Assembly (NCBI RefSeq): GCF_053078305.1
Contig: NZ_CP166879.1
DNA length: 64,000 nt
Direction: 5' to 3' (one strand)
Under the pieces are notes generated by a model. That model was not told the origin of the DNA. It saw only the letters and a program-made list of their open reading frames with translations, and made no database searches. Positions within the stretch are counted from its first letter, which is position 1. Every line of letters begins with the position of its first letter. The position numbers and the translations under genes are program-made. Below, piece after piece: positions 5,073 through 44,667 of the stretch.

Positions 5073-6287
5073 ATGAAATTACCGATTTATCTCGACTACT
5101 CCGCAACCACGCCGGTGGACCCGCGTGTTGCCGAGAAAATGATGCAGTTTATGACGATGGACGGAACCTTTGGTAACCCGGCCTCCCGTTCTCACCGTTT
5201 CGGCTGGCAGGCTGAAGAAGCGGTAGATATCGCCCGTAATCAGATTGCCGATCTGGTCGGCGCTGATCCGCGTGAAATCGTCTTTACCTCTGGTGCAACC
5301 GAATCTGACAACCTGGCGATCAAAGGTGCAGCCAACTTTTATCAGAAAAAAGGCAAGCACATCATCACCAGCAAAACCGAACACAAAGCGGTACTGGATA
5401 CCTGCCGTCAGCTGGAGCGCGAAGGTTTCGAAGTCACCTACCTGGCACCGCAGCGTAACGGTATTATCGACCTGAAAGAACTCGAAGCGGCGATGCGTGA
5501 CGACACCATCCTCGTTTCTATCATGCACGTGAATAACGAAATCGGCGTGGTACAGGATATTGCGGCTATCGGCGAAATGTGCCGTGCTCGTGGCATTATC
5601 TATCACGTTGATGCAACCCAGAGCGTGGGCAAACTGCCTATCGACCTGAGCCAGTTGAAAGTTGACCTGATGTCTTTCTCCGGTCACAAAATCTATGGCC
5701 CGAAAGGTATCGGTGCGCTGTATGTGCGTCGTAAACCGCGCGTACGCATCGAAGCGCAAATGCACGGCGGCGGTCACGAACGCGGTATGCGTTCCGGCAC
5801 TCTGCCTGTTCACCAGATCGTCGGAATGGGCGAAGCCTATCGCATCGCAAAAGAAGAGATGGCGACCGAGATGGAACGTCTGCGCGGCCTGCGTAACCGT
5901 CTGTGGAACGGCATCAAAGATATCGAAGAAGTTTACCTGAACGGTGACCTGGAACACGGTGCGCCGAACATTCTCAACGTCAGCTTCAACTACGTTGAAG
6001 GTGAGTCGCTGATTATGGCGCTGAAAGACCTCGCGGTTTCTTCCGGTTCCGCCTGTACGTCAGCAAGCCTCGAACCGTCCTACGTGCTGCGCGCGCTGGG
6101 GCTGAACGACGAGCTGGCACATAGCTCTATCCGTTTCTCTTTAGGTCGTTTTACTACTGAAGAAGAGATCGACTACACCATCGAGTTAGTTCGTAAATCC
6201 ATCGGTCGTCTGCGTGACCTTTCTCCGCTGTGGGAAATGTACAAGCAGGGCGTGGATCTGAACAGCATCGAATGGGCTCATCATTAA
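5073..6287 (+). CDS. iscS: cysteine desulfurase IscS
   Basis: ORF track 5049..6287; recognised start [16 protein letters not shown] at 5073 with GGAG upstream; 404 aa. Confidence 0.95.
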
Positions 6288-14355: not shown

Positions 14356-14561
14356 AGGCATCTCCATTTTTGCCGGGGTTAGGCTAAATTGTCGGATGTT
14401 TAGTGAAAAGCGACAAGCAAAAGAGGCTGATTTGGCTGTCTGAGCCACAATTCTCACTAAAATTCGGATTGTATGGGCGTGATACTGAATTACATAACGT
14501 AAATTCTCACGCATAATAATTATTCGACGTTGCTAACGGGCCATTGTGGCAGGGATGAAAA

Positions 14562-17500
14562 ATGAAAAAGTTACGCGTAGCCGCCTGCATGCTAATGCTG
14601 GCGCTGGCAGGGTGCGACAACAACGATAACGCGCCAACAGCGGTGAAAAAAGATGCGCCTTCTGAAGTTACTAAAGCGGCCTCTTCAGAAAACGCGAGTT
14701 CAGCAAAACTCTCCGCGCCAGAGCGACAAAAACTGGCCCAACAGAGTGCCGGTAAGGCGCTGACATTGCTGGATCTCTCTGAAGTCCAACTTGATGGTGC
14801 AGCCACGCTGGTGCTGACGTTCTCCATCCCTCTCGACCCGGATCAGGATTTCTCACGCGTTATTCATGTCGTCGATAAAAAAAGCGGCAAAGTGGATGGT
14901 GCCTGGGAGCTGTCAGATAATCTTAAAGAGCTGCGTTTACGCCACCTCGAACCGAAACGTGATTTGATCGTTACTATTGGCAAGGAGGTCAAAGCACTCA
15001 ACAACGCAACCTTCAGTAAAGATTACGAAAAAACTATAACTACCCGCGACATCCAACCCAGCGTCGGTTTTGCCAGCCGTGGTTCGCTGCTGCCAGGTAA
15101 AGTCGTTGAAGGGCTGCCGGTAATGGCGCTCAACGTTAATAATGTCGATGTTAACTTCTTCCGCGTTAAGCCAGAATCTCTGCCAGCATTCATCAGCCAA
15201 TGGGAATACCGCAATTCGCTGGCGAACTGGCAGTCAGACAAACTGCTGCAGATGGCGGATCTGGTCTACACCGGACGGTTTGATCTCAATCCTGCGCGTA
15301 ACACCCGTGAAAAATTATTGCTGCCGCTGGGCGATATCAAACCGCTTCAGCAGGCGGGCGTGTATCTGGCTGTGATGAATCAGGCTGGACGTTACGATTA
15401 CAGTAATCCCGCGACGCTGTTTACGTTAAGTGATATCGGCGTTTCAGCTCATCGTTATCACAATCGTCTGGATATCTTTACCCAAAGTCTGGAAAACGGC
15501 GCGGCCCAGCAAGGAATTGAAGTCTCTTTATTAAATGAGAAAGGGCAGACTCTGACTCAGGCAACCAGTGACGCTCAGGGGCATGTGCAGCTGGAAAATG
15601 ATAAAAACGCCGCATTATTGCTGGCACGTAAAGACGGTCAGACAACGCTACTCGATTTAAAACTTCCGGCGCTGGACTTAGCAGAATTTAACATTGCTGG
15701 CGCGCCAGGCTATAGCAAACAGTTTTTCATGTTTGGCCCGCGCGATCTTTATCGCCCGGGAGAAACGGTCATCCTCAATGGTTTGCTGCGTGATGCAGAC
15801 GGTAAAGCGTTGCCCAATCAACCCATCAAGTTAGACGTGATTAAACCCGATGGGCAGGTACTCAGGAGCGTCGTTAGTCAGCCGGAAAATGGCCTCTACC
15901 ACTTTACCTGGCCACTCGATAGCAATGCGGCAACCGGTATGTGGCATATTCGTGCTAACACGGGCGATAACCAGTATCGGATGTGGGATTTCCACGTCGA
16001 AGATTTTATGCCAGAGCGTATGGCGCTGAATCTGACCGGTGAGAAAACCCCGCTTACGCCGAATGATGAAGTGAAATTCTCCGTGGTGGGATACTACCTG
16101 TACGGTGCGCCTGCTAATGGTAATACTTTGCAAGGGCAACTTTTCCTGCGCCCACTGCGTGAGGCTGTGTCAGCCTTACCTGGTTTTGAATTCGGCGATA
16201 TAGCTGCCGAAAACCTTTCCCGCACGCTGGATGAAGTTCAGTTGACGCTGGATGATAAAGGGCGCGGCGAAGTTTCTACAGAAAGCCAGTGGAAGGAAAC
16301 GCATTCCCCATTGCAGGTTATTTTCCAGGGCAGTTTGCTGGAATCGGGCGGTCGCCCGGTGACGCGCCGTGCTGAGCAGGCTATCTGGCCAGCCGATGCA
16401 TTGCCGGGGATCCGTCCGCAGTTCGCCTCGAAATCGGTTTACGATTATCGCACTGACAGCACGGTGAAACAGCCCATTGTTGATGAAGGCAGTAACGCCG
16501 CTTTTGACATCGTTTATAGCGATGCGCAAGGCGTGAAAAAAGCCGTGTCGGGCTTGCAGGTGCGCCTGATTCGCGAACGCCGCGATTACTACTGGAACTG
16601 GTCAGAAGATGAAGGCTGGCAATCACAGTTTGATCAAAAAGATCTGATTGAAAATGAACAAACTCTGGATCTGAAAGCGGACGAAACCGGCAAGGTCAGT
16701 TTCCCGGTAGAGTGGGGCGCTTATCGTCTGGAAGTCAAAGCGCCGAATGAAGCGGTCAGTAGTGTGCGTTTCTGGGCTGGCTATAGCTGGCAGGACAACA
16801 GCGACGGGAGCGGTGCCGTGCGACCCGACCGTGTCACGCTGAAACTAGATAAAGCCAGTTATCGCCCTGGCGATACCATTAAGTTGCATATTGCCGCGCC
16901 AACGGCGGGTAAAGGTTATGCGATGGTCGAGTCCAGTGAAGGGCCGCTGTGGTGGCAAGAGATTGATGTTCCGGCTCAAGGGCTTGATCTGACGATTCCG
17001 GTCGATAAAACCTGGAATCGTCATGATCTTTATTTGAGTACGCTGGTGGTGCGTCCTGGCGATAAATCTCGCTCCGCGACGCCAAAACGCGCGGTTGGTG
17101 TGTTGCATCTGCCGCTTGGTGATGAAAACCGTCGCCTCGGTCTGGCGCTGGAAACACCAGCAAAAATGCGTCCCAATCAACCATTAACCGTGAAAATTAA
17201 AGCCAGCACTAAAAATGGCGAGAAGCCTAAACAGGTGAATGTGCTGGTGTCTGCCGTTGATAGTGGTGTGCTGAATATTACTGACTACGTCACGCCAGAT
17301 CCGTGGCAGGCGTTCTTTGGTCAGAAACGCTATGGCGCAGACATTTACGATATTTACGGTCAGGTTATTGAAGGTCAGGGGCGTCTGGCAGCTCTGCGTT
17401 TCGGTGGCGATGGTGATGAGCTGAAACGTGGTGGTAAACCGCCGGTCAATCACGTCAATATTGTCGCGCAGCAGGCGCTGCCGGTAACGCTCAACGAACA

Positions 17501-19523
17501 GGGCGAAGGCTCGGTTACACTGCCGATTGGCGATTTTAACGGTGAATTGCGCGTCATGGCGCAAGCCTGGACGGCAGATGACTTCGGTAGCAACGAAAGC
17601 AAAGTGATAGTTGCCGCACCGGTGATTGCTGAACTGAACATGCCGCGCTTTATGGCGAGTGGCGATACCTCGCGTCTGACGCTGGATATCACTAATCTTA
17701 CCGATAAACCGCAAAAACTGAACGTTGCCCTGACCGCCAGTGGTTTGCTTGAACTGGTCAGCGATTCACCCGCAGCCGTTGAATTAGCGCCAGGTGTGCG
17801 TACTACGCTGTTTATCCCGGTGCGAGCATTGCCGGGTTATGGCGATGGAGAAATTCAGGCCACCATTAGCGGGTTAGCGTTACCGGGTGAAACCGTTGCC
17901 GATCAGCATAAGCAGTGGAAAATCGGCGTCCGTCCGGCGTTCCCGGCACAAACGGTTAATTACGGTACGGCGTTACAGCCTGGTGAGACATGGGCGATTC
18001 CGGCGGATGGATTGCAAAACTTCTCGCCTGTTACGCTGGAAGGGCAATTGTTGTTGAGCGGCAAACCACCGCTGAACATCGCACGTTATATCAAAGAGTT
18101 AAAAGCGTATCCGTACGGCTGTCTTGAGCAAACCGCCAGCGGCCTGTTCCCGTCACTTTATACCAACGCAGCCCAACTGCAGGCGTTGGGCATCAAAGGC
18201 GACAGTGATGAGAAACGCCGTGCATCGGTCGATATCGGCATTTCCCGTTTGCTGCAAATGCAACGTGATAACGGCGGCTTTGTGCTGTGGGATAAAAACG
18301 GTGACGAAGAGTACTGGCTGACGGCTTACGTGATGGATTTCCTGGTCCGCGCAGGCGAACAGGGTTACAGCGTGCCGACAGACGCCATTAACCGGGGTAA
18401 TGAGCGTCTGCTGCGCTATTTACAAGATCCGGGCATGATGTCGATCCCGTACGCGGATAATCTCAAAGCCAGTAAATTCGCCGTACAGTCTTACGCTGCG
18501 CTGGTGTTGGCCCGTCAGCAAAAGGCTCCGCTGGGTGCGCTGCGTGAAATCTGGGAGCATCGTGCAGATGCCGCTTCTGGTTTACCGCTGCTGCAACTTG
18601 GCGTTGCGCTGAAAACCATGGGTGATGCAACGCGTGGTGAAGAAGCGATTGTGCTGGCGCTGAAAACGCCGAGAAATAGTGATGAGCGGATATGGCTGGG
18701 TGATTACGGTAGTCCACTGCGCGACAACGCGTTAATGCTCTCCTTGCTGGAAGAAAATAAACTGCTACCCGATGAGCAGTACACTTTGCTGAACACACTT
18801 TCGCAGCAGGCGTTTGGTGAACGCTGGCTATCGACGCAGGAAAGTAACGCGTTGTTCCTGGCTGCCCGTACGATTCAGGATTTACCGGGTAAATGGCAGG
18901 CGCAAACCTCTTTCTCAGCTGAGCCGCTGACAGGCGAGAAAGCGCAAAACAGCAATCTGAATAGCGATCAACTTGCCACCTTGCAGGTGAGCAACAGTGG
19001 CGATCAGCCGTTATGGTTGCGTGTGGATGCCAGCGGTTATCCGCAATCCGCACCTTTACCGGCGAACAATGTGCTGCAAATCGAGCGTCATATTCTTGGT
19101 ACTGATGGTAAGAGCAAATCGCTGGACTCGTTACGTAGCGGCGATCTGGTGCTGGTGTGGTTGCAGGTAAAAGCCAGTAACAGCGTGCCGGATGCGTTGG
19201 TCGTGGATCTGCTGCCTGCGGGTCTGGAACTGGAAAACCAGAATCTGGCGAACGGTAGCGCCAGCCTGGAGCAAAGTGGTGGCGAAGTGCAGAACTTACT
19301 GAACCAGATGCAGCAGGCGAGTATTAAGCACATTGAGTTCCGTGACGATCGCTTTGTGGCGGCGGTTGCCGTTGATGAATACCAACCGGTAACGCTGGTG
19401 TATCTGGCGCGGGCGGTGACGCCGGGAACGTATCAGGTACCGCAACCGATGGTGGAATCAATGTATGTTCCCCAATGGCGGGCGACCGGCGCGGCTGAAG
19501 ATTTGCTGATTGTCAGACCGTAA
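14562..19523 (+). CDS. yfhM: alpha-2-macroglobulin family lipoprotein YfhM
   Basis: 1653-aa ORF with lipobox LAGC and thioester-region motif CLEQ. Confidence 0.9.
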   Translation: MKKLRVAACMLMLALAGCDNNDNAPTAVKKDAPSEVTKAASSENASSAKLSAPERQKLAQQSAGKALTLLDLSEVQLDGAATLVLTFSIPLDPDQDFSRVIHVVDKKSGKVDGAWELSDNLKELRLRHLEPKRDLIVTIGKEVKALNNATFSKDYEKTITTRDIQPSVGFASRGSLLPGKVVEGLPVMALNVNNVDVNFFRVKPESLPAFISQWEYRNSLANWQSDKLLQMADLVYTGRFDLNPARNTREKLLLPLGDIKPLQQAGVYLAVMNQAGRYDYSNPATLFTLSDIGVSAHRYHNRLDIFTQSLENGAAQQGIEVSLLNEKGQTLTQATSDAQGHVQLENDKNAALLLARKDGQTTLLDLKLPALDLAEFNIAGAPGYSKQFFMFGPRDLYRPGETVILNGLLRDADGKALPNQPIKLDVIKPDGQVLRSVVSQPENGLYHFTWPLDSNAATGMWHIRANTGDNQYRMWDFHVEDFMPERMALNLTGEKTPLTPNDEVKFSVVGYYLYGAPANGNTLQGQLFLRPLREAVSALPGFEFGDIAAENLSRTLDEVQLTLDDKGRGEVSTESQWKETHSPLQVIFQGSLLESGGRPVTRRAEQAIWPADALPGIRPQFASKSVYDYRTDSTVKQPIVDEGSNAAFDIVYSDAQGVKKAVSGLQVRLIRERRDYYWNWSEDEGWQSQFDQKDLIENEQTLDLKADETGKVSFPVEWGAYRLEVKAPNEAVSSVRFWAGYSWQDNSDGSGAVRPDRVTLKLDKASYRPGDTIKLHIAAPTAGKGYAMVESSEGPLWWQEIDVPAQGLDLTIPVDKTWNRHDLYLSTLVVRPGDKSRSATPKRAVGVLHLPLGDENRRLGLALETPAKMRPNQPLTVKIKASTKNGEKPKQVNVLVSAVDSGVLNITDYVTPDPWQAFFGQKRYGADIYDIYGQVIEGQGRLAALRFGGDGDELKRGGKPPVNHVNIVAQQALPVTLNEQGEGSVTLPIGDFNGELRVMAQAWTADDFGSNESKVIVAAPVIAELNMPRFMASGDTSRLTLDITNLTDKPQKLNVALTASGLLELVSDSPAAVELAPGVRTTLFIPVRALPGYGDGEIQATISGLALPGETVADQHKQWKIGVRPAFPAQTVNYGTALQPGETWAIPADGLQNFSPVTLEGQLLLSGKPPLNIARYIKELKAYPYGCLEQTASGLFPSLYTNAAQLQALGIKGDSDEKRRASVDIGISRLLQMQRDNGGFVLWDKNGDEEYWLTAYVMDFLVRAGEQGYSVPTDAINRGNERLLRYLQDPGMMSIPYADNLKASKFAVQSYAALVLARQQKAPLGALREIWEHRADAASGLPLLQLGVALKTMGDATRGEEAIVLALKTPRNSDERIWLGDYGSPLRDNALMLSLLEENKLLPDEQYTLLNTLSQQAFGERWLSTQESNALFLAARTIQDLPGKWQAQTSFSAEPLTGEKAQNSNLNSDQLATLQVSNSGDQPLWLRVDASGYPQSAPLPANNVLQIERHILGTDGKSKSLDSLRSGDLVLVWLQVKASNSVPDALVVDLLPAGLELENQNLANGSASLEQSGGEVQNLLNQMQQASIKHIEFRDDRFVAAVAVDEYQPVTLVYLARAVTPGTYQVPQPMVESMYVPQWRATGAAEDLLIVRP

Positions 19524-21836
19524 ATGCCTCGCTTGTTAACCAAACGCGGCTGCTGGATAACGCTGGCAGCTGCGCCATTTCTCCTTTTTCTTGCAGCGTG
19601 GGGAGCAGATAAACTCTGGCCTCTACCGCTGCATGAAGTCAATCCCGCACGAGTGGTCGTGGCGCAGGATGGTACGCCGCTCTGGCGCTTCGCCGATGCT
19701 GACGGCATCTGGCGTTATCCTGTAACAATCGAAGATGTTTCTCCACGTTACCTTGAAGCGCTGATCAATTATGAAGATCGCTGGTTCTGGAAGCATCCTG
19801 GGGTGAATCCATTCTCGGTGGCGCGCGCAGCATGGCAAGATTTCACTTCGGGACGGGTTATTTCCGGTGGCAGCACGCTCACTATGCAGGTTGCTCGTCT
19901 GCTTGATCCTCACCCCAAAACATTTGGCGGCAAAATTCGCCAGCTCTGGCGCGCGTTGCAACTGGAGTGGCATTTGTCTAAGCGTGAAATTCTGACCTTG
20001 TATCTTAACCGCGCTCCGTTTGGCGGTACGTTGCAGGGGATCGGTGCGGCAAGTTGGGCTTATCTCGGAAAATCGCCTGCGAATTTAAGCTATTCCGAGG
20101 CGGCAATGCTGGCGGTTTTGCCGCAAGCGCCCAGCCGTCTTCGCCCGGATCGTTGGCCGGAGCGTGCCGAAGCCGCGCGTAATAAAGTGCTCGAACGGAT
20201 GGCCGTGCAAGGTGTGTGGTCCCGTGAGCAGGTAAAAGAGTCAAGGGAAGAACCCATCTGGCTGGCACCCCGACAAATGCCGCAACTGGCACCGCTGTTT
20301 TCGCGCATGATGCTCGGTAAAAGTAAAAGCGACAAAATCGTTACTACGCTGGATGCCGGGCTTCAGCGACGTCTGGAAGAACTGGCGCAAAACTGGAAAG
20401 GACGATTGCCGCCGCGCAGCTCACTGGCGATGATCGTGGTTGATCATACCGATATGCGTGTTCGCGGCTGGGTGGGATCGGTAGATCTCAACGATGATTC
20501 ACGCTTTGGTCATGTTGATATGGTCAATGCGATCCGATCGCCAGGATCGGTGCTCAAACCGTTTGTTTATGGTCTGGCGCTGGATGAAGGCTTGATCCAC
20601 CCGGCATCACTGCTGCAAGACGTCCCCCGGCGCACCGGTGATTATCGACCAGGTAACTTTGATAGCGGTTTTCATGGCCCGATCAGCATGAGCGAGGCGC
20701 TGGTGCGCTCGCTGAATTTACCTGCTGTGCAGGTACTGGAAGCCTATGGACCGAAACGGTTTGCGGCAAAGTTACGCAATGTTGGATTGCCGTTATATTT
20801 GCCCAACGGTGCGGCGCCGAATCTTTCGCTCATTCTCGGCGGCGCTGGTGCAAAACTGGAAGATATGGCGGCAGCGTATACCGCGTTTGCTCGCCACGGC
20901 AAGGCAGGCAAATTGCGCTTACAGCCTGACGATCCGCTGCTTGAACGGCCTTTAATGTCGTCGGGGGCTGCGTGGATCATTCGCCGGATTATGGCTGATG
21001 AAGCGCAACCCTTGCCGGATGGTGCCTTGCCGCGCGTCGCCCCACTGGCATGGAAAACGGGCACCAGCTATGGCTATCGTGACGCCTGGGCGATTGGGGT
21101 TAACGCTCGCTATGTCATTGGGATCTGGACTGGCAGACCGGACGGCACGCCCGTTGTTGGTCAGTTTGGTTTTGCCAGCGCCGTACCATTGTTGAATCAG
21201 GTCAATAATATCTTACTGTCGCGCAGTGCTAATCTGCCGGAAGACCCGCGCCCGAACTCAGTCACTCGTGGCGTTATCTGCTGGCCGGGCGGACAGTCTT
21301 TGCCGGAAGGTGACGGTAACTGTCGCCGCCGCCTGGCAACCTGGCTGCTGGACGGGAGTCAGCCGCCAACTCTATTACTGCCGGAGCAGGAAGGCATTAA
21401 TGGCATTCGTTTCCCCATCTGGCTGGATGAAAATGGCAAACGTGTTGCCGCTGATTGCCCTCAGGCGCGACAAGAAATGATAAATGTCTGGCCGCTACCG
21501 CTGGAACCCTGGTTGCCCGCATCAGAACGCCGCGCTGTGCGCTTACCACCGGCCTCGACAATTTGCCCGCCATACGGTCACGATGCCCAGCTCCCGCTGC
21601 AGCTGACAGGCGTTCGCGATGGCGAGATTATTAAACGTTTACCGGGCGCAGCGGAAGCGACTTTGCCGTTGCAATCAAGTGGAGGGGCAGGTGAACGCTG
21701 GTGGTTTCTGAATGGCGAACCGTTAACTGAACGCGGGCGCAACGTGACCCTGCATTTGACGGATAAAGGTGATTATCAATTGCTGGTGATGGATGACGTA
21801 GGGCAAATCGCGTCAGTACATTTTTCATTTCAGTGA
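19524..21836 (+). CDS. pbpC: penicillin-binding protein 1C (PbpC)
   Basis: 770-aa ORF; glycosyltransferase and transpeptidase (SVLKP) motifs; start abuts yfhM stop. Confidence 0.9.
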   Translation: MPRLLTKRGCWITLAAAPFLLFLAAWGADKLWPLPLHEVNPARVVVAQDGTPLWRFADADGIWRYPVTIEDVSPRYLEALINYEDRWFWKHPGVNPFSVARAAWQDFTSGRVISGGSTLTMQVARLLDPHPKTFGGKIRQLWRALQLEWHLSKREILTLYLNRAPFGGTLQGIGAASWAYLGKSPANLSYSEAAMLAVLPQAPSRLRPDRWPERAEAARNKVLERMAVQGVWSREQVKESREEPIWLAPRQMPQLAPLFSRMMLGKSKSDKIVTTLDAGLQRRLEELAQNWKGRLPPRSSLAMIVVDHTDMRVRGWVGSVDLNDDSRFGHVDMVNAIRSPGSVLKPFVYGLALDEGLIHPASLLQDVPRRTGDYRPGNFDSGFHGPISMSEALVRSLNLPAVQVLEAYGPKRFAAKLRNVGLPLYLPNGAAPNLSLILGGAGAKLEDMAAAYTAFARHGKAGKLRLQPDDPLLERPLMSSGAAWIIRRIMADEAQPLPDGALPRVAPLAWKTGTSYGYRDAWAIGVNARYVIGIWTGRPDGTPVVGQFGFASAVPLLNQVNNILLSRSANLPEDPRPNSVTRGVICWPGGQSLPEGDGNCRRRLATWLLDGSQPPTLLLPEQEGINGIRFPIWLDENGKRVAADCPQARQEMINVWPLPLEPWLPASERRAVRLPPASTICPPYGHDAQLPLQLTGVRDGEIIKRLPGAAEATLPLQSSGGAGERWWFLNGEPLTERGRNVTLHLTDKGDYQLLVMDDVGQIASVHFSFQ

Positions 21837-21930
21837 AATATACAAAATATTTATTAATCTAATTATGGTATTTATATTTGGAATGCATTAATAATTTAAT
21901 AATCTCACGTTTTTTTAAACGACTAATTAT

Positions 21931-21944
21931 TTGATTGTTATCAG
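21931..21944 (+). promoter_or_regulatory. FNR-like binding site upstream of DMSO-reductase-family operon
   Basis: TTGATTGTTATCAG matches TTGAT-N4-ATCAA at 9/10; 56 bp upstream of ATG in an AT-rich region. Confidence 0.35.
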
Positions 21945-21999
21945 CATTGTTCTCGAATAAATACGTGAATATTTATTTTTTCATTTTCGGGAACGCAAG

Positions 22000-24381
22000 A
22001 TGGATACGCCAGACGAAAAGGAACGCATTACATTTCCGCAAGTATCACGACGTAGTTTTTTACAAGCGACTTCCGCGCTTATCACTTTGCCTTTTATTTC
22101 TTATACCGTAAAGGCGCAATCCCCAGATGCGTCGCCAGAAGTTACAGCTCCAGTAGCTGATAAAGTCGTGCCCACCTGTAGCACATTTGACTGCGGTGGT
22201 AAGTGCGATATTCGGGCGCATATGCGCGACGGTGTGGTGACGCAAATTACCACGCTTCCCGATAACGAACTGGATCCACAAATGCCGATTATGCGCGCCT
22301 GTGTTCGTGGTTGCGGCTATCGTAAATTTGTTTATCATCCAGACCGCCTCAAATATCCGATGAAACGGGTCGGTAAACGGGGCGAGGGGAAATTTGAGCG
22401 TATTTCATGGGATGAGGCGACGACCTTAATTGCCGATAACCTGAAAAGGATCACGCAACAATATGGCCCGGCTTCACGTTATGTCCATGTCGGGACGGCT
22501 GTTTCTGGTGGAACATTTTCTGGTGATGCGATGGCGCGTCGGCTGTTAAATTTAACCGGTGGTTATCTTGAATATTATCACTCAGTTAGTCTGGGTAATA
22601 CTGCGGCGGCAACGCCTTACACGTATGGCGTGGCGGCCAGCGGTAACTCGATGGATACTCTTCTGGATACCAAACTGGTGATCCTCTGGGGGCATAACCC
22701 AACGGAAACCATCTTCGGTCACACCAATTACTTTTTTCAAAAAATGAAGCAAAACGGTACGCGTTTTATCGTGGTAGATCCGCGTTATTCCGACACTGTA
22801 TCTTCGCTTGCCGATCAGTGGATCCCGCTGCTGCCGACCACGGACAATGCGTTGATGGACGCGATGATGTACGTCATTATCAGCGAAAATCTCCACAATA
22901 AGACATTTATCGACACATATACTCTCGGTTTTGATGAAAACTCTATGCCAGAAGGCGTACCAGCCAACGAATCGTTGGTTGCCTACCTTTTTGGCGCAAA
23001 AGATGGGATACACAAAACGCCGGAATGGGCAGAAAAAATTACCCACGTTCCAGCACAATCCATTCGTCAACTGGCACGCGATTACGCCACTACAAAACCC
23101 GCAGCGTTGATTCAGGGATGGGGGCCACAGCGACATATTTGCGGCGAACGCACCGCCCGAGGTTCAACTTTACTGGCCTCGATTACCGGTAACGTCGGCA
23201 TCAAAGGTGGCTGGGCGGCAGGTTACGGCGGTAGTTCTAATCGTAAATTCTGCGTTGGACCAGATATGCCAGAAAATCCGGTACAAGCGAAAATCTCGAT
23301 TATGAACTGGATGCAGGCGGCGGATGATGCTTCTAAAGTTACGCCGCAAGATGGGCTTAAAGGTGTCGATAAACTCGACAGTAATATCCGCCTGCTGTTC
23401 TCACTGGCAGGTAATTATCTGGCGAACCAGAACCCGGACGTCCACCAGGCCGCGAAGCTCCTTGAAGACGAATCTAAAATAGAATTCATCGTACTCAGCG
23501 ATCTGTTCATGACTCCGAGCGCGAAATATGCCGATGTGTTGCTGCCGGAAACCAGCTTTATGGAACGCTGGAATATCGGCGAAACATGGGGAACTGCGAG
23601 CTATCTTATTCTGTCAGAAAAACTGATTGAGCCGGATTTTGAACGTCGCACCGATTATGACTGGTTGCGTGACGTGGCGAAAAAACTGGGTGTCGAAGCC
23701 GAGTTCAGTCAAGGACGTGATGAGAAGCAATGGGTAGAGCATATCTGGGAGCAAACTCGTCTGGCGATGCCGGATGAAAATTTGCCGGACTTCGCGACCC
23801 TGCAAAAAACACGTCGACATCTTTTTAAAAGTGCGCCGCACATCGCTTTCGAAGCAAATATTCGCGATCCGCAGAATAATCCTTTCCCGACGCCTTCCGG
23901 CAAAATTGAGATCTTCTCTAAGCGTCTTTTTGATATGCAAGATCCAGAAATTCCCGCGCTTTCGCACTATGTCCCTGCATTTGAAGGGCCAGAAGATAAA
24001 CTGACGGCGAAATACCCGTTGCAGCTCATCACCTGGAAAGGGAAAAACCGTGCTAATTCCACCCAGTATGCTAACCCGTGGCTGCAAGAAGTTCAGACGC
24101 AAAAACTCTGGCTGAATCCGCAAGATGCAAAACAGCGCGGGATTAGCGAAGGAGATAGCGTAAAAATTTATAACGATCGTGGTGTGAGCATTATCCCGGT
24201 GGAAATAACCCCCCGTATCATCCCTGGCGTAGTTGCTATGCAGGCGGGGGCATGGTGGCAACCGGATGCACAAGGTATCGATCGCGGAGGCTGTGCCAAT
24301 GTACTGAGTTCGACCCGCATTACGGCGCTGGCGAAAGGGAATTCGCATCAAACAATGCTGGTGGAGGTTGAGAAAGCATGA
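22000..24381 (+). CDS. molybdopterin (DMSO reductase family) oxidoreductase catalytic subunit with Tat signal
   Basis: 793 aa; SRRSFLQATSAL twin-arginine motif; N-terminal CxxCxxxC Fe-S motif (CSTFDCGGKC). Confidence 0.85.
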   Translation: MDTPDEKERITFPQVSRRSFLQATSALITLPFISYTVKAQSPDASPEVTAPVADKVVPTCSTFDCGGKCDIRAHMRDGVVTQITTLPDNELDPQMPIMRACVRGCGYRKFVYHPDRLKYPMKRVGKRGEGKFERISWDEATTLIADNLKRITQQYGPASRYVHVGTAVSGGTFSGDAMARRLLNLTGGYLEYYHSVSLGNTAAATPYTYGVAASGNSMDTLLDTKLVILWGHNPTETIFGHTNYFFQKMKQNGTRFIVVDPRYSDTVSSLADQWIPLLPTTDNALMDAMMYVIISENLHNKTFIDTYTLGFDENSMPEGVPANESLVAYLFGAKDGIHKTPEWAEKITHVPAQSIRQLARDYATTKPAALIQGWGPQRHICGERTARGSTLLASITGNVGIKGGWAAGYGGSSNRKFCVGPDMPENPVQAKISIMNWMQAADDASKVTPQDGLKGVDKLDSNIRLLFSLAGNYLANQNPDVHQAAKLLEDESKIEFIVLSDLFMTPSAKYADVLLPETSFMERWNIGETWGTASYLILSEKLIEPDFERRTDYDWLRDVAKKLGVEAEFSQGRDEKQWVEHIWEQTRLAMPDENLPDFATLQKTRRHLFKSAPHIAFEANIRDPQNNPFPTPSGKIEIFSKRLFDMQDPEIPALSHYVPAFEGPEDKLTAKYPLQLITWKGKNRANSTQYANPWLQEVQTQKLWLNPQDAKQRGISEGDSVKIYNDRGVSIIPVEITPRIIPGVVAMQAGAWWQPDAQGIDRGGCANVLSSTRITALAKGNSHQTMLVEVEKA

Positions 24382-25007
24382 GCCAATTTAAAGAATTTGC
24401 ATCTGTCAGCGACAAACAATTAGGGTTCTTTATTGACTCTTCGCGTTGTTCTGGCTGTAAAGCGTGTCAGGTGGCCTGTAAAGACAAAAACAACCTTGAG
24501 GTTGGGCGACGTTTTCGCCGCGTGTATGAAGTGAACGGCGGTGGCTTCATCGCCACTGGAGAGGGCGGTGTGAGTCATAATGTCTTTGCTTATACCCTTT
24601 CTGTTTCCTGTAACCATTGCGCGGATCCGATCTGTACCAAAAATTGCCCGACGATGGCGATGCATAAGCGTCCCGGAGACGGCATTGTGCGCGTGAATAC
24701 TGATAAGTGCGTCGGTTGCGGTTACTGCGCCTGGTCCTGTCCTTACGGCGCACCACAAATGAATGAGCAGACCGGGCAGATGTCGAAATGCGATTTCTGT
24801 ATTGATCTGCAAGCTAAAGGAGAACAACCCATTTGCGTGGCAACGTGCCCGTTGGGGGCGATTAAGTTCGGCCCTATTGATGAGTTGCGTGAAAAGTATG
24901 GCGATGTCAGTGATGTGAAAGGTTTACCTGATTCGTCGATTACGCAGCCAAATCTGGTGATTAAACCGCATCAGGGCGCGGAAAAGGAGGCGTCACATCA
25001 TGCATGA
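24378..25007 (+). CDS. 4Fe-4S ferredoxin-type electron transfer subunit (DmsB-like)
   Basis: 209 aa with multiple CxxCxxCxxxCP motifs; ATGA overlap with upstream gene. Confidence 0.85.
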   Translation: MSQFKEFASVSDKQLGFFIDSSRCSGCKACQVACKDKNNLEVGRRFRRVYEVNGGGFIATGEGGVSHNVFAYTLSVSCNHCADPICTKNCPTMAMHKRPGDGIVRVNTDKCVGCGYCAWSCPYGAPQMNEQTGQMSKCDFCIDLQAKGEQPICVATCPLGAIKFGPIDELREKYGDVSDVKGLPDSSITQPNLVIKPHQGAEKEASHHA

Positions 25008-25821
25008 ATTACCGTTAATGGCTTTTACGCTGTTGTTACAGGCATCGGTCGGTATGACGTTGTGGCTGGCGTTTCTTCATCGTCATATTTTAATCACCTC
25101 CAGTGCCCGCCCGGTTATGCGACCGCCATTACTGTTGGCTTTTTTGGCCGGGGCAGTAGGGTTACTGATTTCTACCTTACACCTGGGTTATCCACTTAAT
25201 GCGATGCATGCGCTAAGTCACTTTTCCAGTTCATGGCTGAGTCGGGAAATTATCTTTGGTGCGCTGTATCTGGCGCTATTGGGTTTAACCACATTACTGG
25301 TCATGTTACACAAAGGCGGCTGGCAACTCCTTCTTATGCTAGCGGCAGTGGTCGGAATTGTTGATGTTTTCTGCATGGCGCAAGTTTACATCCATACGTC
25401 GATTATCACCTGGCAGCATTACAACACGCTGATTATGTTCTTAGGTACAGTGGGAATTCTCGGTTCAGCGCTGGTAGCAGTGTTTCGTATTAGCGGAATT
25501 TTGCCGCAGATTGATGCCCTGCGTAATGGATGCGTGTTGGTGATCGCTCTCCTGGTTCTGTTGCGCTTGTTGGTTCAGCCGTTGTGGGTAGGGGATTTAA
25601 CGGCGAATGCGATGCAGATAGCTACACTGCCACATGCGCCATTAGCGATGCTGGGACAGTTAAAACCCATACTGACACTAAGCTGGGGAATTTCCGTCAT
25701 TGGGATGATGTTCTTTGCTGTCGGTGGTTGTAAAAAGAATATCCCTGCGGCGTTATTCGGTAGCGTACTGCTAGTGGGCAGTGAAGTTATGCTGCGTTTT
25801 GTCTTTTTTAGTATCGGCTAA
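25000..25821 (+). CDS. integral membrane anchor subunit (DmsC-like)
   Basis: 273 aa, highly hydrophobic multi-TM; 8-bp overlap with upstream gene. Confidence 0.75.
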   Translation: MHELPLMAFTLLLQASVGMTLWLAFLHRHILITSSARPVMRPPLLLAFLAGAVGLLISTLHLGYPLNAMHALSHFSSSWLSREIIFGALYLALLGLTTLLVMLHKGGWQLLLMLAAVVGIVDVFCMAQVYIHTSIITWQHYNTLIMFLGTVGILGSALVAVFRISGILPQIDALRNGCVLVIALLVLLRLLVQPLWVGDLTANAMQIATLPHAPLAMLGQLKPILTLSWGISVIGMMFFAVGGCKKNIPAALFGSVLLVGSEVMLRFVFFSIG

Positions 25822-26675
25822 TGTTAAGTCATAACATAACGATTGGCGCGGAATGCGCGCGCCAACGCTTTCGTTTTGCAACATGTCATGCCTGTGTCGA
25901 GGCTTGCCCGGCACAGGCGCTAACGCTGACAGAAGAGGGCATAGCGGTCGACGCGGAACAATGTATTGAGTGTGCGGTTTGCCAGTTTATTTGTCCGCAA
26001 GAGGCTATTCGTGGCGTTAATTCCCCTTTACGTTATTTTCGCAATCACACCCTGGTCGCACCTTTCACCACTATTGCGCCGACGCTGGAAGAACTTTTGC
26101 TATGGCATAAAGAGCAGGGGATCACAGCGATCGCGATTGATCTGAGTCAGGCGAAGGCATGGGAGCGCGCATTATTGCTGTTAAACGAACGCTTACGGCA
26201 ATATGGCGAGGAAGGCTGGTCTGTGGTATCTCCACATACCAGTGAGGTGAATGTTTCCCGGCGTCGTTTGTTCCATGTGCAGCGTGCGGATGTTCAGATG
26301 ACACAAATACAACCAGGATTACGTCGGTTACATTATTTATGGCCCCAGATTAGTGATGCTCGCCCGATGATGGATCCTCAAAAGTGTCAGCTTTGCGGTG
26401 CATGCTGGCGGGCCTGCGAGCAACAGGTCTTTTCGCTTAACGAAGGCCATTTACAAATCAATGATGCCTTGTGTAACGGATGCCAAAATTGTATTGCTGT
26501 TTGTTTTCATCAGGCAATGACCGTTGAATTGACGATTCTACCGGCAAAAATTGTGAATCTTCATGCTAATCGCAAAGTCTGTAAAACCTGTCAAAAATCC
26601 TTTCTTACTTTTCAGCAAAATGCGCAAAATTGTCTTTATTGCCAACGTCATCGCTATGGGATGAGAGCACCATAA
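25821..26675 (+). CDS. cysteine-rich ferredoxin-like protein, fourth gene of the operon
   Basis: 284 aa; motifs CHACVEACP, CIECAVCQFICP, CQLCGACWRAC, CNGCQNCIAVC; TAATG stop/start overlap. Confidence 0.7.
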   Translation: MLSHNITIGAECARQRFRFATCHACVEACPAQALTLTEEGIAVDAEQCIECAVCQFICPQEAIRGVNSPLRYFRNHTLVAPFTTIAPTLEELLLWHKEQGITAIAIDLSQAKAWERALLLLNERLRQYGEEGWSVVSPHTSEVNVSRRRLFHVQRADVQMTQIQPGLRRLHYLWPQISDARPMMDPQKCQLCGACWRACEQQVFSLNEGHLQINDALCNGCQNCIAVCFHQAMTVELTILPAKIVNLHANRKVCKTCQKSFLTFQQNAQNCLYCQRHRYGMRAP

Positions 26676-26815
26676 AAGTCGAGTTGTTGCTAAAACTCAT
26701 TTTATTTTAAAAAAATGTTACCTTCATCAATAGTCAACGGCCCTGTTGCTCATTATAATCCGCGCCATCTCGTACGCTGGTACAGACAACAACAGAACAA
26801 TTTACAGAGGTAAAA

Positions 26816-40721: not shown

Positions 40722-40760
40722 GGCTATTATTTAAACTATTGTTTTATTTGATTTAGTGAG

Positions 40761-40800
40761 TGCCATTGATGATATTGACTGCATTATCAATGGCATTTTT
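40761..40800 (+). terminator. guaA terminator
   Basis: imperfect stem TGCCATTGATGAT / ATTATCAATGGCA followed by ATTTTT. Confidence 0.5.
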
Positions 40801-41105
40801 CATGGTATAAGGCCGACGCTGAATCGAAGATATAGCAAATACCATGTGACTGTATCAGCAAATGCCATGGTATCGACAACCGGGGGCATTGCAGCGCTGT
40901 GCTGATGCCATCGATGCCCGCTTTTAGTCAGAACACTCTCTCGACCCAAGCCTCCAGATCCTTAAATATGCGCCAGAGGAGCACCTCGTGATCGAAATTA
41001 TGAACAAGACAGCCGCCGCTCGGAATCGAAGTCTCCATATGGGTGAATAAGGTTTGCGGAAAACACGCTGAGAAAATAGAAAAGCGTCAATGAAGGGACA
41101 TAGCA

Positions 41106-42386
41106 ATGGCGATTAACGGAGTGGACGGTGTTAGCGCAGTCACCGTGGATGAACTACTCAAGCAAGGCCTTCGGATACCGAACTATCAACGCCCATACAG
41201 TTGGGAAGTATCGACCGCTCTACAACTGGTGGATGATCTCAGCGAAGCTCTTCGAGATACCGAAAGAAAAGATATTCCCTATGTTTTGGGTGCAATCATT
41301 CTTCACGATGATGGTGAGTATCTCAATGTAGTCGACGGACAGCAACGTCTGCTGACTTTGCGAATGATTCTTGCGGCCTTAGATCCGATAAATCACCAAA
41401 TTTCGGTGTCTGGTAACAGAGAAACCTCTGTCTCCCTGGTTTGGATAGAGCTTCAAAGGCGCCTGTCGCAGTTGGAAGATAAAAAAGAATTTTTGGATTT
41501 TATCTGTCACAAATGTCAGTTGGTGCGTATTGTGACGGACGATATTGATGAGGCATTCCGTGTCTTTGATTCCCAGAACTATCGCGGCAAACCGCTTGCC
41601 CCTCATGACTTGCTCAAAGCACACCACCTGCGCGAAATGCACGATGAGTCCGCTGCTATGAAAGTGGCTGTCGTTGAGGCTTGGGAAGCCGTAAATGATG
41701 AGGATCTGGACAGGCTTTTTTCTACTTTTTTATACCGGATATCCAAGTGGTCACGAGGAGAAAGCTCGCTCGAATTTGCTATTCGGGACATCGGTATGTT
41801 CAAGGGAATTTCATCACGATCCCACAGATCATTTTCGCCAAATCTGCGATATCACCTTGCAGCACAAGCCGCTATGCCACTTCTAAGTGCATGGGCGGTG
41901 TCCTCGACACATGATGCTCGAAATGCCGGGCGCAGCCGCTTTCAGCTTGATGCCCCGATAATCGCTGGGCGCTCATTTTTCGAGATGGTGGCATTCATGC
42001 TTGACGAATTGAAGATACTGGAAAAAGAGGTTATCGACAAAGGTTTCAAAAACTTTGGCCCATCTCAAAGTCGCTACCGCTACGTGTACGAATTGTTCAT
42101 TGCCGCTCTGCTTTGCTATACAAACAAGTTTGGCGATGAAGATGTGGATGAAGTGCGAAATAGGTTATTCGCATGGGCATATGCCTTGCGGGTCGAGTTA
42201 CTTCGTGTGCAATTTGTATCTGCTGACAACCGAGCTCGAGGTAAAAACGATGCAAATAAATCGCCTTTTGTTTTGCTACGCAACGCGATGACTGGAAGTG
42301 TTGTCCGCAAACTTCCAATAGCAAGTCAGCCATACAACGATAACCACGAAAAGGAACTCATTGCTTTTATCAAGGGGCTGCAATGA
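41106..42386 (+). CDS. DUF262-like (ParB/Srx-fold, GmrS-like) protein without nuclease domain; first gene of accessory two-gene cassette
   Basis: 426 aa; N-terminal IPNYQRPYSW and DGQQRL motifs at ~aa 25-80, later FDSQNYRGKPL motif; SD AAGGGA upstream; stop overlaps next start. Confidence 0.8.
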   Translation: MAINGVDGVSAVTVDELLKQGLRIPNYQRPYSWEVSTALQLVDDLSEALRDTERKDIPYVLGAIILHDDGEYLNVVDGQQRLLTLRMILAALDPINHQISVSGNRETSVSLVWIELQRRLSQLEDKKEFLDFICHKCQLVRIVTDDIDEAFRVFDSQNYRGKPLAPHDLLKAHHLREMHDESAAMKVAVVEAWEAVNDEDLDRLFSTFLYRISKWSRGESSLEFAIRDIGMFKGISSRSHRSFSPNLRYHLAAQAAMPLLSAWAVSSTHDARNAGRSRFQLDAPIIAGRSFFEMVAFMLDELKILEKEVIDKGFKNFGPSQSRYRYVYELFIAALLCYTNKFGDEDVDEVRNRLFAWAYALRVELLRVQFVSADNRARGKNDANKSPFVLLRNAMTGSVVRKLPIASQPYNDNHEKELIAFIKGLQ

Positions 42387-44335
42387 GCAAGAAGGAGTTG
42401 AAACCCGAACTGCTAACAGTAGGCAAGCTATTCACGGACAATTATCTGATTCCTATTTATCAACGGAACTATGCTTGGCGGGCCGAACAGATTGAGCAAC
42501 TTATCAGCGATATTCAAGACTCGGTTGTTGGGGGCCAGGACGACTATTTTCTTGGAAACCTTGTTGTAATCAAGCGGGGTAGAGAGGACGAGTTCGAGGT
42601 CATAGATGGACAACAACGACTTACAACCCTCTATCTGCTTCTGACCTTCCTGGAGCAAGACGGTGAGGGTGGGAAGCCGTCGATTGGCCATGCAGGCCAC
42701 TTGCAATATGAGTCGCGTGCACGGGCAACGGAAGCCCTGCGGCGAGTAGCACAGGAGGCGGCTAAGGGGCACGTCCGACCGCAGGGCTCCACGAGTAATG
42801 CAGATGCTGGCATCCATGAAGGCTACAGCATCATCAATCAGTTCTTCAAACAAAATGAAACCCTTAATTGCTCACGCGAAAAATTCTCCGATTTCTTGCT
42901 AACGAAGGTTACTGTCGTCCGTGCCTCGCTGCCACCCAATACAGATCTCAATCGCTACTTCGAGATCATGAACACTCGTGGGCAGCAACTCAAGCAGGTT
43001 GATATTGTTAAGGCTCGCCTGATGAGCAAGCTGCCCAATCAATATGAACGCGAATGCTTCGCCTGGGTTTGGGATGCCTGTGCTGAGATGGATTCTTATG
43101 TCCAGATGTCTCTGACCCGTGGTGACACCAGTTTGCGAAACAAAGTATTTGGCGATGAATGGTCCTGGCTGGAGGTGACCAGCTTCGCGTCGTTAATGGA
43201 AAGTCGTCCGCAATCCGGCATCAATTCTTCAAGGCAATCCTCCGAAGGGGTATCGTTGTCCTTGGATGAGGCGTTGTCAAAATACGCTAAAGAGATCGAG
43301 TCAAATTCCACTGAAGACGAGGGCAACGAGCGGTTTCGTTCGACTATTGAGTTTCCGGCCTTTCTGCTACACGTTCTAAGAATTATGAAAGGCGATGAGG
43401 TCGAAGACGAAGGCCAGCTTGACGACAAACGCCTCATCAAGTCATTTGACGACGCTGTAAATAATGTACCCGATGCTAAAGCCGATTGGGTGCGTAACTT
43501 TACATTCATGCTCCTCAAGTGCCGCAACCTCTTCGATGGCTTCATTTTGAAGCGTCAATTCACGGCGAACATCGGTGACGATGGCGATTGGTCTCTCCAG
43601 CGATTGAAGAAAGGCGGCGCGGACAAGAAGCCAACCCCGACGTATATCCATGTTTTCTCGGCCAGCAATGGAAACTTAGAGGAGGACGGCGGTGCTGACC
43701 CACATACCCGAGATGTATTGCTGCTTCAGTCCATGCTTCGGATAACCTACACTTCTCCGCGAACGATGCACTGGATTACCAAAGTTCTTCGCTGGCTATC
43801 CGTCAAAGCCCCTCAAGACGCGAAACATGCGGATCTTGCCGATTTGTTGAAGGGGTATGCCCGCAGCAAGGTCAAAGAGACATTCCCCTTTGAGGAAGAT
43901 CAGCAACCACAAGGGTTTGGTATCAGCCGCATCGTCTTTTCGTATCTCGACTATCTTCTGTTGAGCGATTCCTCAAAACGAGATTTCAAATTTCAGTTCA
44001 GAACTTCCATTGAGCACTTTTATCCACAGCATCCGGACAAAGAACAGTCGGGCGCGGTTGTTTCAGGTTCTAGCCTTAACCTGCTTGGCAACCTTGCGCT
44101 CGTAAGCGTCAGCGCGAACTCAAAATTCAGCAATAGCCTTCCCAGAGCGAAGGCCGAAAACTTCAAGGATACGATTGAACTTCAAAGTCCCAAGCTCAAG
44201 AGAATGGCGGAAATCACTCGAAATACAAGCTGGGACGATCAGCAGATAACAGCTCATCATGAAGAGATGGTGACATTGCTTCGTGATGATGTAAGTCTGG
44301 TGGAGGCAAGCGGAAGATCCTACCCGGGGCGTTGA
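42383..44335 (+). CDS. GmrSD/SspE-like protein: N-terminal DUF262-like domain fused to C-terminal DUF1524-like His-Me finger nuclease domain (putative modification-dependent or defence endonuclease)
   Basis: 650 aa; IPIYQRNYAW and DGQQRLTTL motifs; FEIMNTRGQQL; C-terminal SIEHFYPQHP ... GNLALVSVSANSKFSN. Confidence 0.8.
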   Translation: MSKKELKPELLTVGKLFTDNYLIPIYQRNYAWRAEQIEQLISDIQDSVVGGQDDYFLGNLVVIKRGREDEFEVIDGQQRLTTLYLLLTFLEQDGEGGKPSIGHAGHLQYESRARATEALRRVAQEAAKGHVRPQGSTSNADAGIHEGYSIINQFFKQNETLNCSREKFSDFLLTKVTVVRASLPPNTDLNRYFEIMNTRGQQLKQVDIVKARLMSKLPNQYERECFAWVWDACAEMDSYVQMSLTRGDTSLRNKVFGDEWSWLEVTSFASLMESRPQSGINSSRQSSEGVSLSLDEALSKYAKEIESNSTEDEGNERFRSTIEFPAFLLHVLRIMKGDEVEDEGQLDDKRLIKSFDDAVNNVPDAKADWVRNFTFMLLKCRNLFDGFILKRQFTANIGDDGDWSLQRLKKGGADKKPTPTYIHVFSASNGNLEEDGGADPHTRDVLLLQSMLRITYTSPRTMHWITKVLRWLSVKAPQDAKHADLADLLKGYARSKVKETFPFEEDQQPQGFGISRIVFSYLDYLLLSDSSKRDFKFQFRTSIEHFYPQHPDKEQSGAVVSGSSLNLLGNLALVSVSANSKFSNSLPRAKAENFKDTIELQSPKLKRMAEITRNTSWDDQQITAHHEEMVTLLRDDVSLVEASGRSYPGR

Positions 44336-44632
44336 CTTCTTTGAATAACCGCTTTTGGACGAATGTCCCTTGTGGAGTGCAAGTTGTCAGTTTAAAAGTG
44401 TTTTGCGTCGGGCGACACGATCAGTACAGCTCCCAGGTTTTTTTACCATGGTATTTTGTGTGGTATCGACATGCAAAGATAATGCTATTTTGTTGATTTT
44501 ATAGTGTTTTAAGGCGGCATTGATCATCGAGTGGGAATAAACCCTGTACATATTGCTGAAGTTTTCTTTTCGGATAAAACTTCAGCAGATTTTCACAGCA
44601 AACCCCTCTTATCTCTGGAGGTTTTTTTTACG

Positions 44633-44667
44633 CAAATTAAAAACCCATAACTCTCACGAATCATGGG
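44633..44667 (-). terminator. yfgI terminator
   Basis: minus-strand hairpin CCCATGATTCGTGAGAGTTATGGG followed by T-rich run. Confidence 0.4.

Follow-up and report, generated by a model that had tools for sequence, protein, structure and literature searches.

The pbpC gene raises the question of how ribosomes reach its start codon, which follows the stop codon of the gene upstream, yfhM, without a gap. The stretch of DNA analysed here (the window; 64 000 nucleotides of contig NZ_CP166879.1) is E. coli chromosome. The original prediction, made from the letters alone, held that the abutting codons point to translational coupling of the two genes. Our analysis suggests that this is an ordinary two-gene operon junction at which most PBP1C (the pbpC product) is probably synthesised by ribosomes that have completed ECAM (the yfhM product) immediately before.

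The features discussed below are collected in Table 1. The yfhM product is a type I bacterial alpha-2-macroglobulin (A2M) lipoprotein: it has the Pfam domains bMG1, bMG2, bMG3, bMG5, bMG6, bMG10, MG2, A2M bait region, A2M, TED and CUB, a lipobox (LAGC, with the cysteine at residue 18 and an aspartate at +2) and a CLEQ thioester motif at residue 1187. The pbpC product has Transgly, Transpeptidase and BiPBP_C domains, which place it among the class A PBPs of the PbpC type, and carries the motifs EDRWFWKHPG, SVLK, SLN and KTG (patterns EDxxFxxHxG, SxxK, SxN and KTG). Its N-terminal signal anchor consists of MPRLLTKRG followed by CWITLAAAPFLLFLAAW. The predicted gene identities, an alpha-2-macroglobulin gene followed by a gene for a peptidoglycan synthase, are borne out by these domains and motifs.

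Table 1. Features of the yfhM–pbpC region (positions are those of the window)
Feature	Position	Strand	Basis and remarks
Sigma-70-like promoter match ATTACA-17-CATAAT	14489..14517	+	Consensus scan; candidate operon promoter
yfhM (ECAM), 1653 aa	14562..19523	+	ORF, Pfam, motifs, RefSeq
Predicted junction hairpin	19476..19538	+	Fold prediction; Escherichia only
yfhM–pbpC junction TAAATG	19521..19526	+	Sequence and ORFs; spacer 0 nt, same frame
pbpC (PBP1C), 770 aa	19524..21836	+	ORF, Pfam, motifs
11-bp hairpin GCGGCTGCTGG-ATAACG-CTGGCAGCTGC	19546..19573	+	pbpC codons 8–17 (pbpC +23..+50); covariation

The TAA stop codon of yfhM (19521–19523) is followed directly by the ATG of pbpC (19524–19526), so that the spacer is 0 nt, and the two open reading frames share a single frame. 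RefSeq draws the boundaries in the same abutting way in every E. coli record inspected; the absence of intergenic space is thus confirmed by the sequence, the open reading frames and the annotation. The TAAATG hexamer is unremarkable in itself, with 26 occurrences in the window against 36 expected; what gives it weight is that it falls where one long open reading frame meets the next, and that it is conserved there. In 5425 of the 5426 complete E. coli genomes a 40-mer centred on the junction is matched with no more than about three mismatches, and the most divergent matches inspected still have CCGTAAATGCC at the junction. A 651-nt stretch around the junction is likewise matched in 5425 of 5426 complete genomes, at least 80% of it being covered at 90–100% identity in 5424 of them; strains of phylogroup B2 have 92–93% identity over the 651 nt, with GTCAGACCGTAAATGCCTCGC unchanged. 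The same TAAATG junction is found in E. albertii and in two Citrobacter species. A search of the junction region against Rfam gave no family at E ≤ 1. The 651-nt stretch also matches NZ_CP065615.1 (FDAARGOS_943) at 100%; colinearity of the whole window with that record was rejected despite this match, and IS1 copies and pseudogenes are a property of the NZ_CP065615.1 strain that has no place in the account of the window.

Spacing of the pair in relatives was assessed from an alignment of 33 diverse PbpC proteins and from a genome scan with one genome per species. The diversity of this set comes from a representative search together with the genome scan, a first search having returned only clusters of near-identical Citrobacter and E. 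coli sequences. In 68 of the 80 other genomes pbpC is directly preceded, on its own strand, by the C-terminus of an A2M homologue and, by a conservative count, an in-frame pbpC start is found −4 to +11 nt from the A2M stop codon in about 28–30 of these 68. The geometry differs between lineages. Every genus of Enterobacteriaceae sampled has a spacing of 0 to +11 nt: the stop and start codons abut as TAAATG in Escherichia and Citrobacter (0 nt, with a frame common to both open reading frames), are one nucleotide apart in Enterobacter, Superficieibacter and Kluyvera (TAAnATG or TAAnGTG; +1, with the frame broken) and lie at +3 in Mangrovibacter and at +11 in Enterobacter sp. Ag1. An ATGA overlap (−4) is found in many alphaproteobacteria, in one betaproteobacterium and in others, and Stenotrophomonas ginsengisoli has a TGATG overlap (−1). 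Longer spacers are seen in Yersinia and Photorhabdus (about 50–60 nt, containing an inverted repeat) and in Pseudomonas (430–755 nt). Tight spacing is therefore common, in several geometries, but it is not obligatory. Its recurrence in distant lineages at 0, +1, −1 and −4 looks, from the sequences compared, like something maintained rather than accidental. A Shine–Dalgarno (SD) sequence was absent from the tight-junction loci of the Enterobacteriaceae; in Yersinia artesiana (L013) the scoring gave an SD-like match, in the two Photorhabdus loci the matches were weak, and for Y. aldovae no pbpC start candidate was picked.

The pbpC gene of the window has no SD sequence either: its best duplex with the 3′ end of 16S rRNA is calculated at +0.4 kcal/mol. 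The comparison set for this value and for the cost of opening the start region was 48 annotated genes of a related strain, taken from the corresponding part of its chromosome, for which the median duplex is −5.95 kcal/mol; pbpC ranks 1 of 48, i.e. weakest. Opening the region from −15 to +12 around the pbpC start is predicted to cost 16.9 kcal/mol compared with a median of 8.5 kcal/mol, the second highest value of the 48 and exceeded only by that of the small toxin gene timP. This high predicted cost is due to the predicted junction hairpin, one side of which is formed by the final ∼16 codons of yfhM and the other by the G of the AUG together with pbpC codons 2–5; the stop and start codons lie within or adjoin an internal loop. 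The fold of 120 nt around the junction has a predicted energy of −48.5 kcal/mol (z = −3.29), and none of 200 shuffled sequences was equally stable. The fold recurs in one B2 strain and in E. albertii. As a family-wide element the hairpin was rejected, being missing from the RNAalifold consensus of 11 Enterobacteriaceae, and we therefore take it to be an Escherichia-specific feature with only modest support; the substitutions within this genus are transitions opposite G, which preserve pairing almost by default.

Since pbpC lacks its own ribosome-binding site and has the AUG right behind the yfhM stop codon, PBP1C would be made mainly by ribosomes that terminate on ECAM. In the mechanism that we propose, yfhM and pbpC would form a two-gene operon transcribed from a promoter upstream of yfhM, for which the sigma-70-like match that precedes the yfhM ATG by 45 nt is a candidate. 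A ribosome terminating at the TAA would already be positioned over the adjacent AUG and could restart there; because the AUG would be covered in this way and there is little for an independent 30S subunit to bind, termination–reinitiation is the best-supported route. In Escherichia the same ribosome may also melt the hairpin that would otherwise hide the pbpC start (RNA unfolding). The expected outcome is that PBP1C is produced only when ECAM is, in a fixed and probably lower ratio. The analysis shows directly which genes these are, the 0-nt junction and its conservation, the lack of an SD sequence and the predicted structure; co-transcription, the dependence of pbpC on yfhM translation and the ratio of the products are what we infer here from sequence; our literature search returned no polar-mutation, reporter, ribosome-profiling or transcript-mapping result on yfhM/pbpC in the accessible papers.

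This reading agrees with what has been described for coupled genes. Coupling works best at spacings of −4 to +3 nt, it is aided by an SD sequence but does not depend on one, and coupled downstream genes are often silent on their own, from structure or from weak 30S affinity (PMC12548453). A spacing of −8 to +10 nt has been treated as predictive of termination–reinitiation (PMC10666635), and the co-directional yfhM and pbpC, at a distance of 0, fall within this range. Pairs known for termination–reinitiation (PMC6728339, PMC10666635, PMC12548453) are likewise co-directional; here the spacing is 0 nt and the footprint of a ribosome terminating on yfhM would take in the pbpC start. The commonest geometries among coupled pairs are ATGA (−4) and TGATG or TAATG (−1), whereas yfhM/pbpC has 0, and their downstream genes usually have an SD sequence, whereas pbpC has none. 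In coupling by RNA unfolding, as in phage f1 VII/IX, MS2 coat/lysis and E. coli rpmI–rplT (PMC12548453), a hairpin spans the upstream end and the downstream start and silences the latter until it is translated through. A similar arrangement is predicted here, although unlike in those systems the yfhM/pbpC hairpin is known from prediction and is confined to Escherichia. The original prediction of translational coupling is in this sense supported by the sequence, through the SD-less pbpC start, the high predicted cost of opening it and the tight spacing in many distant lineages.

The most serious competing explanation, which we nevertheless consider rather unlikely, is that the zero spacing reflects genome compaction and nothing more: the two genes would share an mRNA, 30S subunits would initiate independently at the SD-less pbpC start, and translation of yfhM would have little effect. 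The anti-SD duplexes of xseA, ppx, trmJ and rodZ, which are expressed neighbours, are as weak as that of pbpC, genes are known that initiate independently without an SD sequence, and several lineages retain the A2M/pbpC pair with long spacers and an SD sequence for pbpC. Furthermore, no role is known for PBP1C under standard laboratory conditions (PMC7554673), so that a weak independent start might suffice. What compaction accounts for less well is the predicted cost of opening the pbpC start region, which is unusually high, the physical covering of the AUG by a ribosome terminating at the TAA, and the recurrence of tight spacing in distant lineages with different geometries.

An alternative that we regard as highly improbable is that pbpC has a promoter to itself towards the 3′ end of yfhM and perhaps also begins at a start codon further downstream. 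The original prediction named, as the observation that would speak against coupling, a pbpC start further downstream that is served by a separate promoter; as far as the sequence allows, none was found. The in-frame alternatives to the annotated pbpC start are a TTG at codon 4 and then a GTG at codon 44, with none in between. The TTG is unconserved, being CTG in B2 strains and in E. albertii, and a start at the GTG would remove the membrane anchor of PBP1C. Some gene callers do begin PbpC at codon 12 or 13 (P0001 and P0039); their 758-residue protein, which begins inside the anchor, arises because B2-type strains have an ATG at codon 12, a codon that is ATG solely in those strains and ACG in the window. 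Judged by sequence, the ATG at 19524 is the sole start that would retain both the positively charged N-terminus and the anchor, one or all of which a downstream start would lose.

The transcription signals point the same way. From 14517 to 21603 the scan of the plus strand gave no sigma-70-like match, and it gave nothing terminator-like at the junction or close to it. On the plus strand the closest matches to a terminator are at 16159 in yfhM (∼3.3 kb upstream) and at 20278 (∼0.75 kb into pbpC); both lie within coding regions, and the total count of such matches equals the shuffle expectation. These calls are consensus pattern matches; in favour of an internal promoter, scans of this kind miss weak and alternative-sigma promoters. 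Genomic SELEX has placed a site for the RpoE holoenzyme inside yfhM, at K-12 coordinate 2649866 (PMC5493296). By the K-12 gene coordinates, however, this position should fall near the 5′ end of yfhM.

Read-through of the TAA to give an ECAM–PBP1C fusion has a vanishingly small probability: the single frame of the two genes would permit it, but the frame shared at 0 nt in Escherichia and Citrobacter is broken in relatives at +1, +11, −1 and −4, which effectively refutes a fusion, of the nine other tight-junction loci in Enterobacteriaceae eight also end the A2M gene in TAA, no A2M-sized fusion occurs among the homologues listed and, going by domains and motifs, the fusion would put the PBP1C anchor behind a periplasmic lipoprotein and so invert its topology.

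A second hairpin lies wholly within pbpC. Enterobacteriaceae with the tight SD-less junction keep it, with compensatory changes, and neither Yersinia nor Photorhabdus showed it. In the alignment 91.5% of its cells are paired compared with 25–62% in slid controls, both sides have changed in five of the 11 pairs, and the covariation score is 0.455 compared with 0.185 in shuffled alignments, none of 500 of which reached 0.455. It matches no Rfam family. As an intrinsic terminator it was rejected: a U-run follows directly in some genera only, and the terminator scan made no call. The bases of the U-run are also the Phe and Leu codons of the membrane anchor. The hairpin could be a tuner of reinitiation, an attenuator where the U-run follows, or a by-product of the codons for W-x-W-L-A. 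Structure just behind an upstream stop codon is reported to lower coupling efficiency (PMC12548453), and the hairpin might therefore weaken reinitiation rather than help it. A more speculative idea, which we hold to be doubtful, is that in Enterobacteriaceae the SD-less abutting start and this hairpin may form one cis-element that makes PBP1C strictly dependent on ECAM translation at a fixed, low PBP1C:ECAM ratio, with the hairpin acting as a brake on reinitiation or, with the U-run, as an attenuator whose effect the coupled ribosome would lift.

The junction itself is correctly described, ordinary and already catalogued. The occurrence of a thioester-type A2M gene next to pbpC goes back to Budd et al. 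(2004), as cited in later work (PMC3328433, PMC4498604, PMC5764988). Subsequent structural papers name the pair an operon and propose, without demonstrating it, a joint role in defence and repair (PMC3328433, PMC4498604, PMC5764988, PMC7554673); calling the two a known functional pair, as the original prediction did, was thus an overstatement, joint action of ECAM and PBP1C being a proposal in this literature (PMC3328433, PMC4498604, PMC7554673). For E. coli K-12, Huber et al. (2023) list b2520 (yfhM) and b2519 (pbpC) at a distance of 0 with the entry ‘CMPLX not’ (PMC10666635), i.e. the products are not known as subunits of one complex. For the corresponding COG pair (COG2373@COG4953) the same study gives a median distance of 9.2 nt (first quartile −4, third quartile 65, n = 337; PMC10666635).

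The significance of the junction goes little beyond housekeeping. If coupling operates as proposed, insertions or nonsense mutations in yfhM would be expected to lower PBP1C as well, and pbpC cloned without the upstream yfhM sequence would need a foreign ribosome-binding site. Measured coupling would lend mild support to the long-standing proposal of ECAM and PBP1C as one periplasmic unit for defence and repair. The pair in the window is the same as the type I bacterial A2M/PBP1C pair known from elsewhere, in which the gene for a CLEQ lipoprotein A2M immediately precedes pbpC in the same orientation. The window strain additionally has an accessory reductase cluster downstream of pbpC that leaves the junction untouched.

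The tight junction, at which the yfhM stop codon directly abuts the pbpC start codon with no Shine–Dalgarno sequence, occurs together with an 11-bp hairpin within codons 8–17 of pbpC. In an alignment of 11 Enterobacteriaceae this hairpin shows covariation, with both-side changes in five pairs; 91.5% of cells are paired and the covariation score was reached by none of 500 shuffles. No such hairpin was seen in Yersinia or Photorhabdus and a search of Rfam gave no match to it. In these two genera (loci L013 ∼5922–5975, L024, L025 and L061) the α-2-macroglobulin (A2M) gene and pbpC are separated by a spacer of 50–60 nt containing a G+C-rich inverted repeat, which in Y. artesiana (L013) is followed by a Shine–Dalgarno-like match. 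The gap in Pseudomonas (L015, L017–L022 and L064) is 430–755 nt.

At 19557–19562, codon 12 of pbpC is ATG in B2-type strains as opposed to ACG in the window. Some gene callers place the PbpC start at codon 12 or 13, within the membrane anchor (P0001 and P0039), and a 758-residue form with a start of this type is the representative of a cluster of 10805 sequences; the N-termini of PbpC in the databases are thus inconsistent. In NCTC9100 (L002, 3325–3500) a deletion that starts at roughly codon 7 of pbpC extends through ndk, and in UM146 (L003, 825–1651) the pbpC annotation is a frameshifted pseudogene. In natural E. coli strains such as these two, yfhM is retained and pbpC is dispensable.

The stretch immediately 3′ of pbpC is very AT-rich. 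A 4.85 kb accessory cluster of four ORFs encoding a molybdopterin reductase of the DMSO/selenate family lies between pbpC and ndk (∼21829–26683, + strand); of 5426 complete E. coli genomes, only 379 carry the full cluster. A second accessory segment, in the guaA–yfgI interval (∼40722–44653, + strand), carries two ORFs joined by an ATGA overlap, a pair that resembles a type IV restriction or defence-like system.

Coordinates of features in the window
Feature	Position	Strand	Evidence
11-bp hairpin, pbpC codons 8–17	19546–19573	+	Covariation
Molybdopterin reductase A subunit	22000–24381	+	
Reductase 4Fe-4S subunit	24378–25007	+	
DmsC-like anchor	25000–25821	+	
Second 4Fe-4S protein	25821–26675	+	
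ORF with GmrSD_N and DUF7834	41106–42386	+	
ORF with GmrSD_N and GmrSD_C	42383–44335	+	

By K-12 gene coordinates, position 2649866 presumably falls near the 5′ end of yfhM, which would be far from the junction. Genomic SELEX placed a binding site for the RpoE holoenzyme within yfhM at this position, tabulated between sseA and pbpC (PMC5493296). The small toxin gene timP, in the sseB–sseA interval (L005, 13049–13174, − strand), has a predicted start-region opening cost (−15 to +12) of 24.8 kcal/mol, the highest among the 48 genes compared.
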